Assembly: GCA_963793865.1 (NCBI GenBank)
Contig: CAWCBP010000014.1
Span: forward strand, 128,001 to 192,000
Reading direction: 5' to 3'
From: an uncultured delta proteobacterium
GTDB taxonomy: Bacteria; Desulfobacterota; WTBG01
Length of the DNA: 64,000 bases
Under the pieces are notes generated by a model. The model made no database searches and was not told where the DNA came from. It saw nothing but the letters and a program-made list of their open reading frames with translations. Position 1 is the first letter of the stretch. Every line of letters starts with the position of its first letter. Of this stretch, positions 20,315 to 23,581 are shown piece after piece. The translations under genes were made by a program, and so were the position numbers.

Positions 20315-21532
20315 ATGTACATGAATAAAAAGAGAGTAAGTCAGGGCAAGGAAAAACAAAAACCCGTGGCAGCCGCTAAAGCCATTAAGAGATCATCACC
20401 GCTTGACCTTTCACGTTCACCCGCCATGAAGGGGCTCATAGCGCAGGCACAGGATATACACAAGGATATCAAAAGCGGCCGCCGCCCGTCGCTGCGGGTG
20501 CCCATCCGCAGCCTGTCCAACGTTTCCTTTTCCAAGGATAAGGGCTTCTTCGCCATCGGCAAGAGGGTGAGCAAGCGGACCCTCTCCTACCAGACCATCA
20601 AGCCCTTTGCCCAGACCGTGCGGATGATGGCCTTTGCCAAGCACCTGATCGACACCAGCGACTTTGCTTCCAAACGTGAAGTCTACTACACCTCCAAGGG
20701 ATCAGCCAAGCGTGGCTCGGAAGCGGGTACGGCAGGATGGGGGCCGGCATCGTTTAAAGAGCAGCCGGAATCTGACACCATCATGGATGACATGGAGGCG
20801 ATGATTGGAGTAAACCGGGAGCAGCTCGGCTTTATTCCCGCCGAGCAGAACGGTTCGGTTGCAGGCGAGCTGATTGTTATCGATATCGACCCCGCCACGG
20901 GTAAAAAGATCGAAATTGACTGCACCGCCTTCGGCAGAGGGAGCTATTCCATTCCTTCGCGTGTGGAAGGCCTGGAGTTTCGCACCAAAGCCAAATTTAT
21001 ACTTGCGGTTGAGACCGCGGCGCTTTTCGAGCGCTTAAACGGTCACGCCTACTGGCGGGACGCAAAATGTATCATCGTGGCCATGGGCGGTGTTCCCACC
21101 CGGGCAAACCGGCGGTTTGTCCGGCTGCTGTCCGATTCCTGCAGGCTGCCGGTCTATGTTTTCACCGATGGTGACCCCTATGGTTACGGCAATATTTACC
21201 GCACCATGAAGGTGGGCTCCGGCAATGCGGCTCACATCAATGAGTTCTTCTGCGTGCCCCGGGCAAAGCTGATCGGTGTCACGCCCCAGGACATCGTGGA
21301 TTACAACCTGCCTACCCATCCCCTGGAAGACAAGGATAAGAAGCGCGCCCAGGATGCGATCAAAAATGATCCCTTCTTCAAGAACAACAAACAGTGGGTG
21401 CAGGCATTGCAGGAAATGGTCAAGATGGGCGTGCGCGTCGAGCAGCAGGCATTTGCCGCGCGCGGGCTCAATTACGTCATGGAGACCTACCTTCCCGAGA
21501 AGCTGGGCAATCCCTCCAAGATGCTTCCATAG
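20315..21532 (+). CDS. top6A: DNA topoisomerase VI subunit A (Spo11 family)
   Basis: SKREVYY catalytic Tyr region, AVET, FTDGDPYG TOPRIM, EQQA. Confidence 0.93.
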   Translation: MYMNKKRVSQGKEKQKPVAAAKAIKRSSPLDLSRSPAMKGLIAQAQDIHKDIKSGRRPSLRVPIRSLSNVSFSKDKGFFAIGKRVSKRTLSYQTIKPFAQTVRMMAFAKHLIDTSDFASKREVYYTSKGSAKRGSEAGTAGWGPASFKEQPESDTIMDDMEAMIGVNREQLGFIPAEQNGSVAGELIVIDIDPATGKKIEIDCTAFGRGSYSIPSRVEGLEFRTKAKFILAVETAALFERLNGHAYWRDAKCIIVAMGGVPTRANRRFVRLLSDSCRLPVYVFTDGDPYGYGNIYRTMKVGSGNAAHINEFFCVPRAKLIGVTPQDIVDYNLPTHPLEDKDKKRAQDAIKNDPFFKNNKQWVQALQEMVKMGVRVEQQAFAARGLNYVMETYLPEKLGNPSKMLP

Positions 21533-21616
21533 GCCTTACTCGAATTCGAGACATGATATTAGAAAAAATTCTGCAGCACTGCAACCCTGGTAGGGACTTA
21601 GGCTAACATTTTTATC

Positions 21617-21644
21617 TTGACATCAACTCAGTTTTTGGTAAATT
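21617..21644 (+). promoter_or_regulatory. sigma-70 promoter driving the tandem-RNA leader
   Basis: TTGACA (21617-22), 16-bp spacer, TG-g-TAAATT extended -10. Confidence 0.6.
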
Positions 21645-21704
21645 AAATCTACACTTCAAAGATGAGTTTACTTTGAAGTGCCTATAATTGAATATAATGC
21701 TAAT

Positions 21705-21790
21705 GGGTCTAGAAACTTTCGTTTCTAGAGGTTAAAGCTGTCGATAGTCGGGCCGCTATCTGAAAATTCAGAGGGCGTCCCTTTTCTTTT
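21705..21790 (+). ncRNA. putative riboswitch copy 1 (nhaA-I/DUF1646-like, Li+/Na+) with intrinsic terminator
   Basis: GGG-TCTAGAAAC/GTTTCTAGA-GGTTAAA...GATAGT-CGGGCC-GCTATC, then terminator hairpin and TTTTCTTTT. Confidence 0.7.
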
Positions 21791-21877
21791 GTCCGGAGAG
21801 CGAGAATAAAGGAGGAAATTACGAGTTAATCGCAAATTGTAATAATACATTTTATTAATAATTGAATAGAGTTTCAC

Positions 21878-21964
21878 GGGTCTAGAAGCAATTGTTTCTA
21901 GAGGTTAAATGCTGTTGATAGCCGGGCCGCTATCTGAAAATTCAGAGGGCGTCCCTTTTCTTTT
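21878..21964 (+). ncRNA. putative riboswitch copy 2 with intrinsic terminator
   Basis: GGG-TCTAGAAGC/GTTTCTAGA-GGTTAAAT...GATAGC-CGGGCC-GCTATC, identical terminator. Confidence 0.7.
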
Positions 21965-22041
21965 GTCCGGACGGGCACAGTGCAGGAGGAAGTAACGGGT
22001 TAATCATAAATTGCGTTGATAAAATTGAAGAGAGTTTCAAC

Positions 22042-22130
22042 GGGTCCAGAAACGGTTGTTTCTGGAGGTTAAATTCTGTTGATAGCCGGGCCGCTATCTG
22101 AAAATTCAGAGGGCGTCCCTTTTCTTTTTT
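22042..22130 (+). ncRNA. putative riboswitch copy 3 with intrinsic terminator
   Basis: GGG-TCCAGAAAC/GTTTCTGGA (compensatory T-A to C-G change)-GGTTAAAT...GATAGC-CGGGCC-GCTATC, identical terminator. Confidence 0.7.
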
Positions 22131-22202
22131 CAGGAGTCAGATTCTGGGGACTTTATTAAGGTGTGTACCTCATGCATCAATTAATTATGAGGAGGAACAA
22201 GG

Positions 22203-22376
22203 ATGAAATCTTTTAAAGAAGTGATCTTAGGTCTTGTAATAGGTGGTGGTTTTATTTTGATCCTCGCTGGTATCGAAGCCTTCAATCTGGGGAACAAGTG
22301 GTATCCTGCATATTTCATAACTGGTGCTATCATTGCGGTGGGATTCCTTAAACTCTCAACAAAAGTTATCAAATAG
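22203..22376 (+). CDS. small two-helix membrane protein A (57 aa, unknown family)
   Basis: GAGGAGG RBS; MKSFKEVILGLVIGGGFILILAGIEAFNLGNKWYPAYFITGAIIAVGFLKLSTKVIK; 31/50 identical to the next gene; below the ORF-track cutoff. Confidence 0.85.
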   Translation: MKSFKEVILGLVIGGGFILILAGIEAFNLGNKWYPAYFITGAIIAVGFLKLSTKVIK

Positions 22377-22425
22377 TAACAAGTAGCGAACATCAAACAT
22401 TCATTATTTGAAAGGAGAAACAAAG

Positions 22426-22620
22426 ATGAAGATTTTAAAAGATTGGATGTTAGGTATTTGCATTGGTGGTGGCATTGTATTGATTTTATTGGGTCTGCAA
22501 GCTGTAACCAGGGGAAATAAGTGGTGGCCTGCATATTTTATAGCCGGTGCTATCATTGCCGCAGGATTCATTAAAGTCGCGATCAATGATTATTTAAAGG
22601 AGAAAATAGGAGCACGATAG
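22426..22620 (+). CDS. small two-helix membrane protein B (64 aa), paralog of A
   Basis: AAGGAG RBS; MKILKDWMLGICIGGGIVLILLGLQAVTRGNKWWPAYFIAGAIIAAGFIK... Confidence 0.85.
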   Translation: MKILKDWMLGICIGGGIVLILLGLQAVTRGNKWWPAYFIAGAIIAAGFIKVAINDYLKEKIGAR

Positions 22621-22728
22621 ATTTTATCGTTGTTTGCCTATTTGCGGTTCTGTGTGGTATAATATCTCTTCAGCTCTTTACTGAAAGGGCTGTGGGGAGG
22701 CTTTGCCGTCTTGTCAGGAAGGTGACTT

Positions 22729-23487: not shown

Positions 23488-23581
23488 TACTCCGCATTGG
23501 TAAGAGGAAAGTACTACCGTAAGGGCTGTGCTCTTTGCAAGCGCGGCCCTTGTTTTATTCTCGCAGGCTGACTTCCCGGGT

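Follow-up and report, generated by a model that had tools for sequence, protein, structure and literature searches.

The closest described relatives of the locus treated here are RNAs of the nhaA-I motif, defined by Weinberg et al. 2017 with occasional neighbouring copies noted (PMC5737381). White et al. 2022 (Sci Rep, PMC9646797) showed that the majority of nhaA-I RNAs sense Li+; for most members of the Li+-I type, control at the ribosome-binding site of nhaA genes is presumed (PMC9646797). The same authors describe rare terminator-bearing variants, found in Deltaproteobacteria upstream of hypothetical genes, and name them Na+-II riboswitches (PMC9646797), a name also used in PMC9337991. We report on positions 21617 to 22620 of a 64,000-nucleotide (nt) stretch from an uncultured delta proteobacterium (contig CAWCBP010000014.1, positions 128,001 to 192,000; "the window"), where three nhaA-I units in a row precede two genes for small membrane proteins, A and B.

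As for the published variants, the "hypo" RNA of Desulfobulbus propionicus turns on read-through with Na+ in vitro and binds Na+ in the low-millimolar range. It has a C at "position 54", where most nhaA-I RNAs have U, and its C54U mutant is broadened, responding to Li+, Na+ and NH4+. The gene behind it is listed in the supplementary table only as "Hypothetical, various unknown, 171". Since these variants are associated with other genes than the Li+-I and Li+-II RNAs are, a different ligand was argued for. The authors further described tandem arrays and a single triple array, with a terminator behind every aptamer; the triple lies ahead of nhaD in an environmental sequence (all PMC9646797). A full-text literature search for "Na+-II riboswitch" returned nothing beyond PMC9646797 and PMC9337991, and a search for later structural work on the class found none.

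We consider the array, with a probability of roughly 80%, to be three independent nhaA-I transcriptional ON switches of the Na+-II form, placed behind one promoter, gating two small membrane proteins and most likely sensing Na+. The features concerned are given below in window coordinates.

21617..21644, + strand: sigma-70-type promoter, TTGACA-16 nt-TAAATT with TG before the -10 element, 10 of 12 matches
21705..21761, + strand: aptamer of unit 1 (nhaA-I, RF03057, 48.0 bits), with U at 21748, 5' of the CGGGCC loop
21750..21790, + strand: terminator 1, stem 21750-21763 / 21768-21781, T-tract 21782-21790, hairpin -16.3 kcal/mol, from the minimum-energy fold and the terminator scan
21878..21935, + strand: aptamer of unit 2 (nhaA-I, RF03057, 42.6 bits), with C at 21922
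21924..21964, + strand: terminator 2, identical in sequence to terminator 1, from fold and scan
22042..22099, + strand: aptamer of unit 3 (nhaA-I, RF03057, 44.7 bits), with C at 22086
22088..22130, + strand: terminator 3, same stem with a longer T-tract, from fold and scan
22203..22376, + strand: gene A, open reading frame (ORF) for a two-helix membrane protein of 57 amino acids (aa), Shine-Dalgarno sequence GAGGAGG
22426..22620, + strand: gene B, ORF of 64 aa, paralog of gene A, its ATG at 22426 preceded by AAAGGAG

In terms of family, a scan of the whole window against Rfam 15 (cmscan, gathering threshold) gave four matches, one tRNA and three to nhaA-I (RF03057). All three are full length (model positions 1-55 of 55), lie on the + strand and score 42.6-48.0 bits, against a threshold of 37 bits. 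This bears out the first-pass annotation of this DNA, made from the letters alone, which had recognised alkali-ion riboswitches of the nhaA-I type and had named the Rfam covariance models as the check. It had also seen a resemblance to DUF1646 (Na+-I) riboswitches, which does not stand: the model of that family, RF03071, has no match at E <= 1 in 21500-22700 and none at E <= 0.001 in the whole genome. A permissive scan of 21500-22700 found no other Rfam family at E <= 0.1. Within the 3.85-Mb genome, the three units of the window are the only nhaA-I matches.

The units follow one another at periods of 173/174 nt and then 164 nt. The 42 nt from CGGGCC through the end of the T-tract, TTTTCTTTT, are identical across the three units, while the spacers and the loop of the first aptamer hairpin (P1) have diverged. 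P1 of unit 3 carries a compensatory change from U-A to C-G, and P1 of unit 2 a change from A-U to G-U. The unpaired conserved elements, namely the 5' GGGU, the AGGUU linker and the CGGGCC loop of the second hairpin (P2), are present in every unit and nearly invariant across 46 related aptamers. When these 46 distinct sequences, drawn from the genus, the class and metagenome loci, were folded together with RNAalifold, P1 and P2 were recovered, with compensatory changes at 11 of 14 pairs. Together with the covariance-model scores, this supports the assignment of the three units as nhaA-I-type alkali-ion riboswitches.

The minimum-energy fold of all three units has a terminator hairpin, GGGCCGCTATCTGA paired with TCAGAGGGCGTCCC, followed by the T-tract. 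In each unit the 5' arm of the terminator is made of the loop and 3' arm of P2, and P2 and the terminator are therefore mutually exclusive. In the minimum-energy fold of unit 3, sequence 5' of GGGU forms one more pairing, which is absent from units 1 and 2 and was taken as chance. The terminator scan returned 3 sites, compared with 1.6 +/- 1.4 in shuffles. Of the 41 related aptamers covered, 37 are followed by a hairpin with a folding energy of -8 kcal/mol or lower, beginning within P2 and reaching to a T-run. As for the four misses, the two from G033 are miscalls of the regular expression, since a GC-rich hairpin and a T-run do follow; G021 (C82) is without a clean T-run, and the aptamer of G075 leads straight into a ribosome-binding site. 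The competing folds, present in three of three units, support a construction as ON switches through terminator/anti-terminator competition, as had been proposed at first pass for a serial design.

Compared with the Na+-II riboswitch, the locus shares the RF03057 model and the arrangement GGGU/P1/AGGUU/P2, in which P2 has a CGGGCC loop and overlaps the terminator, as well as the deltaproteobacterial (Thermodesulfobacteriota) host, the hypothetical downstream genes and, in units 2 and 3, the C. By eye, the P1 stem arms of unit 3 are those of the published D. propionicus construct. The differences are the U of unit 1 and the presence of three serial units, against one in the validated example. 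We also looked for the D. propionicus locus itself through the shared P1 arms in 401 sampled genomes of the phylum, and only unit 3 of the window matched. The published triple array (nhaA-I/Li+-I before nhaD; PMC9646797) is alike in having three aptamers, a terminator for each and predicted activation, but it controls the NhaD cation/H+ antiporter, whereas the window's array controls two tiny two-helix proteins; this comparison was made by description only. With the Li+-I riboswitch the array shares the RF03057 model and, in unit 1, the consensus U-G pair that closes P2; it differs in having a terminator as its expression platform and in controlling genes other than transporter genes. Further afield, the tandem same-ligand riboswitches for thiamine pyrophosphate (TPP) of Bacillus anthracis, reportedly described by Welz and Breaker in 2007, likewise consist of independent and complete units, each an aptamer plus its terminator, arrayed along a single leader; the ligand class is another one, and the array of the window has ON rather than OFF logic and three units.

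Architecture, logic, host group and triple layout are thus already in print, and the array is a new example of a known device. The first-pass suggestion of a new cation or osmotic stress module is overstated, since the switch type, its place before hypothetical genes and its tandem and triple arrays were published before (PMC9646797).

Regarding the ligand, the templates in the supplement of PMC9646797 (wild type against M4) place C54 immediately 5' of CGGGCC. According to the Rfam model and the 46-aptamer alignment, this base pairs with the G after the loop, either as a U-G wobble or as C-G. Unit 1 has U (21748), which is both the Li+-I consensus state and the state of the published C54U mutant, while unit 2 (21922) and unit 3 (22086) have C, the Na+-II state; the base typical of Na+-II is therefore found in 2 of the 3 window units. 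Since units 2 and 3 are of the C type and all three terminators must be passed, Na+ would most likely be the effective signal of the array, by analogy with the published relative. In series, the Na+-selective C units would dominate over the broad U unit 1.

The array may instead sense Li+, or monovalent cations broadly, as a Li+-I array that happens to use terminators. The base at position 54 in the relatives speaks for this and weighs against Na+ as the signal: in the wider lineage it is U in 35 of 41 aptamers and C in 6 of 41 (U in 35 of the 46 distinct sequences). With U in most terminator-bearing relatives, C cannot serve as the signature of these switches, and U-type units may sense Li+ or monovalent cations broadly. 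Within the genus, all units before these genes in G001 and G002 are of the U type; G003 has C, C, C. A further point against Na+ is that ion selectivity is carried over from a single published relative and a single point mutant, the latter with the U of unit 1 and a response to Li+, Na+ and NH4+ (PMC9646797). Against Li+ or broad sensing, however, stands the C of units 2 and 3, as in the Na+-selective published switch, together with the need for read-through at all three sites. Li+ is moreover scarce in most habitats. The gene associations of the terminator-bearing variants, unlike those of Li+-I and Li+-II, point the same way (PMC9646797), and we regard sensing of Li+ or of cations in general as unlikely. 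In the metagenome loci both types occur: L171, L174 and L178 have U and then C, and L172, L175 and L176 have U only. Of the 4 mixed arrays, all 4 have the U unit nearest the promoter.

The promoter-like site at 21617-21644 is the only one on the + strand upstream of the array, and the promoter scan found none between the units. Its sequence TCTTGACA is invariant in the leaders of all four species of the genus (G000-G003, with G000 the genome of the window) and was also found upstream of the array in 7 metagenome loci. The leader is alignable along its whole length within the genus, and promoter, array and gene pair are kept together in 4 of 4 species. Promoter, three repeated units, terminators, overlap of P2 with the terminator and the two ORFs had all been noted at first pass, and every one of these observations holds under cmscan, folds and scans.

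The serial layout also bears on the idea that the units mainly make short terminated small RNAs, or are transcribed separately, with control of the downstream genes being secondary. Short transcripts must indeed accumulate at low ligand, as a strong terminator ends each unit, and a conserved AATTGAA block lies 5' of every aptamer. But the one promoter-like site is before the array, and a TATAAT-like sequence upstream of unit 1 is lost in units 2 and 3. Furthermore, close relatives differ in having 1 to 3 units yet keep the link to the small-protein genes, and the cis-acting expression platform of a known family fully explains the anatomy. A main role as small RNAs is on these grounds highly improbable, and we retain the ON switches in series.

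Proteins A and B share 60% identity over 52 residues. Each has two hydrophobic stretches and short ends with more basic than acidic residues. The AlphaFold model of the gene A product is a helical hairpin (helices 2-29 and 34-56) with a mean predicted local distance difference test (pLDDT) score of 89.1. Over 27 pairs of family sequences, the ratio of nonsynonymous to synonymous substitution rates (dN/dS) ranges from 0.10 to 0.61, and dS reaches 1.9; by gene, against orthologs, it is 0.10-0.61 for A and 0.20-0.34 for B. Such values indicate that both ORFs are real protein-coding genes under purifying selection.

They also bear on the reading in which the repeats are non-functional duplications or chance resemblance and the small ORFs are not genes. 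General caution speaks for it, in that short ORFs and repeats do arise by chance. The three covariance-model matches above the curated threshold and the compensatory changes in the alignment contradict it, as does the conservation of aptamer and terminator despite near-saturated synonymous sites in the adjacent genes (dS as given above). With dN/dS also well below 1, this explanation is effectively refuted.

In Pfam and NCBIfam neither protein belongs to a family, with only sub-threshold matches at E >= 0.012, in agreement with the first-pass view of an unrecognised pair of small membrane proteins. The best feature score in the ESM Atlas was 0.87, below the 0.9 level, and gave no lead. A word-index homolog search with gene A returned 4 proteins. 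The HMMER profile built from 12 family members, run against 1.84 billion representatives, had 9 matches at E <= 0.001 and 5 at E <= 1e-10; one of the nine, a 512-aa protein aligned over 21 residues, was regarded as noise. A six-frame search of the 401 sampled phylum genomes gave matches in 12 genomes at E <= 0.01, of which only those in G000, G001 and G029 were convincing (E <= 1e-16). The nine others were dropped (E >= 4.8e-4, mostly within long ORFs). Judging from these searches, the small-protein family appears to be tiny and lineage-restricted.

The co-occurrence of motif and peptides in other genomes, proposed at first pass as a check, was found. Out of 10 metagenome loci with the family, all 8 that have upstream DNA carry 1-3 same-strand nhaA-I matches directly upstream, the remaining 2 beginning within 64 nt of the gene. 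Likewise, the switch lies upstream in 5 of 5 genomes with the family (G000-G003 and G029). The family loci are close kin, so these counts are not independent samples of the gene-switch link.

As for function, we suggest with low confidence that the A/B pair acts in Na+ or salt stress at the membrane. A third paralog in this genome (L168:1501-1674; L168 is G000:C8:499379-502552) follows, at a distance of 60 nt and on the same strand, genes for a universal stress protein (Usp, PF00582, 9e-27) and a sodium/hydrogen exchanger (Na_H_Exchanger, PF00999, 1.2e-34). The gene row of this locus is Na_H_Exchanger, Usp, mini-protein, enolase. Because of the Na_H_Exchanger in this neighbourhood, A and B could be accessory subunits of a cation/proton antiporter; by analogy, they could also be modulators of cation leak or membrane potential similar to Pmp3/RCI2. 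Both suggestions are of low confidence. The Pmp3/RCI2 proteolipids (PF01679) have roughly 55 residues and two helices and are salt-induced in yeast and plants (PMC7835403, PMC3278423). A and B resemble them in size, in the two transmembrane helices and in salt induction, the last being, for A and B, inferred from the riboswitch. There is no detectable sequence relationship, the PF01679 profile being absent from the Pfam matches at E <= 1 for both small proteins, and the analogy is a functional one only. Two observations count against these ideas: the third paralog lacks a riboswitch, so that not every family member is under switch control, and the antiporter link comes from a single neighbourhood in this genome, in a family without an annotated relative.

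The proposed mechanism is as follows. Transcription from the single promoter (about 21617-21644) would yield a leader of roughly 550 nt with three transcriptional ON switches. Each nascent unit would fold either as the aptamer (P1, AGGUU linker, P2 with CGGGCC loop) or as the terminator. A bound cation would stabilise the aptamer and block the terminator, so that the polymerase continues. The ON logic and the Na+ response are those published for the close relative, and the units are assumed to act independently. A full-length mRNA would then require read-through at three sites, with an output equal to the product of three probabilities. Such an array is expected to have a very low leak, a large induction ratio, a higher ion threshold and a slightly steeper curve.

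We put numbers on this with a product model of independent units, setting leak to 0.1 and maximum to 0.8 for each. When three units replace one, the modelled leak falls as the cube, from 0.1 to 0.001, and induction rises from 8-fold to 512-fold. The midpoint moves up 3.25-fold and maximal output falls to 0.51. The 10-90% span narrows from 81-fold to 38-fold, with the apparent Hill coefficient rising from 1.00 to 1.21. The steep response expected at first pass is thus weakly true in the model, where the larger effects are those on leak and threshold, and the term tight, high-threshold gate suits the array better than steep switch.

A broader scenario, which we hold only tentatively and rate as doubtful, is that the two-helix pair and the single-helix, basic-tailed mini-proteins found behind such switches in relatives are an unrecognised class of sodium-stress effectors that tune a cation/proton antiporter or the cation leak of the membrane. 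The mixed array could then be an ion filter, with the broad U unit first and the Na+-selective C units last, and the number of units (1 to 3 in close relatives) would be rapidly adjusted by unequal recombination for threshold and leak.

The number of units was surveyed in 101 related genomes, with units within 400 nt clustered into arrays. nhaA-I matches were present in 22 of the 101 and, within the class, in 17 of 42 genomes. Triple arrays are found in four genomes (G000, G002, G003 and G030) and paired units in eight (G001, G011, G012, G022, G028, G034, G036 and G042), with G029 having one pair and one single unit. Among the metagenome loci, L169 has one unit, with the promoter motif 91 nt upstream; L171, L174, L176 and L178 have two, and L172 and L175 three. 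L175 and L176 encode an identical protein A, yet have three and two units, respectively. L178 is almost identical to the window and has two units, the first being a hybrid of unit 1 and unit 2, with gene A deleted. In L177 there is a single small gene, with a product resembling protein A at its start and protein B at its end. From these comparisons, unequal recombination between repeats would evidently change unit number quickly, and L178 and L177 suggest that unequal crossing-over occurs between the paralogs A and B too.

What is new here concerns the identity of the mini-protein family and its tight linkage to the switch, the mixed U/C make-up in constant order, the apparently rapid change in copy number and serial units that would mainly lower the leak. 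The only Na+/Li+-type riboswitch locus of this genome serves, threefold, two membrane proteins named in no database. Through the link between gene and switch, the "hypothetical" part of the Na+-II regulon, left open by White et al., becomes accessible to testing. Furthermore, natural arrays of 1, 2 and 3 units with U/C variants are a resource for work on leak, threshold and steepness of serial switches.

In a wider search, the exact P2 hairpin GATAGYCGGGCCGCTATC was found in at least 121 stretches (L032-L152) among 185,579 species genomes. Among the matches listed, record titles are mostly delta proteobacterium or Thermodesulfobacteriota, with others naming Nitrospirota, NC10, Elusimicrobia, Planctomycetia, Thermoleophilia and further groups. 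L079 and L041, with the same array, are titled as "uncultured delta proteobacterium" or "Thermodesulfobacteriota" metagenome-assembled genomes. Going by these titles, the published host limit of Deltaproteobacteria is probably too narrow, and terminator-type nhaA-I switches may reach well beyond it.

The genes downstream of these loci are diverse among the matches listed, in a census of the at least 121 pattern-matched loci that is rough owing to regular-expression and ORF picking (wrong-frame ORFs, one locus counted on both strands). Several of the loci precede a conserved protein of about 108 aa starting MA(E/T)W(A/T)FLTNHAIV. In other genera of the class, the switch is mostly followed by strings of single-helix peptides of 38-68 aa with tails rich in Lys, Arg and Glu (L023, L006, L005, L012, L015, L016, L024 and L010); such strings come after about 14 of 25 arrays in a heuristic ORF list. 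In G019 and G027 they lie just ahead of a gene for a multi-pass membrane protein, which in G019 may be NhaA-like, going by its N-terminus. An ORF of 402 aa behind the single switch of G021, considered as a candidate compatible-solute enzyme, had no Pfam match at 1e-3.

Lastly, two features lie downstream of the gene pair.

22614..22700, + strand: remnant of a third small single-helix gene, with ACG in place of the relatives' ATG, seen from its translation against intact genes in G003, G001 and L177
22729..23487, + strand: ORF for a conserved hypothetical protein, 252 aa, Cys-rich, with an N-terminal hydrophobic segment

Relatives have 1-2 extra mini-genes after the pair, coding for single-helix peptides of 34-55 aa with basic tails (L018:830-988:-, L018:670-771:-, L009 from 2064, and L177), and the first of these and the stop of gene B overlap (ATGA). 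Through a T-to-C change, this ATG has become ACG in both the window and L178; the same change moves the gene B stop by one codon, and what is left looks like a dead remnant.

The 252-aa ORF may be co-transcribed with the pair, since no terminator-like site was found between gene B and this ORF, the first on the + strand being at 23519-23553. A promoter-like site at 22634-22663 could also serve the ORF alone. Its product has 570 homologs at E <= 0.001, no Pfam domain and no name other than "hypothetical"; named homologs include records labelled Spirochaetota and Anaeromyxobacteraceae. The ORF is syntenic in L171, L174 and L178; within the extent of the G001 and G003 loci it is absent. On the other side, directly upstream of the riboswitch locus, the window encodes topoisomerase VI subunits B and A (PF09239, PF21180 and PF04406; 18649-21532), an enzyme better known from archaea and uncommon in bacteria. 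Top6A is the conserved left-hand neighbour in L169, L171, L174 and L178 as well.

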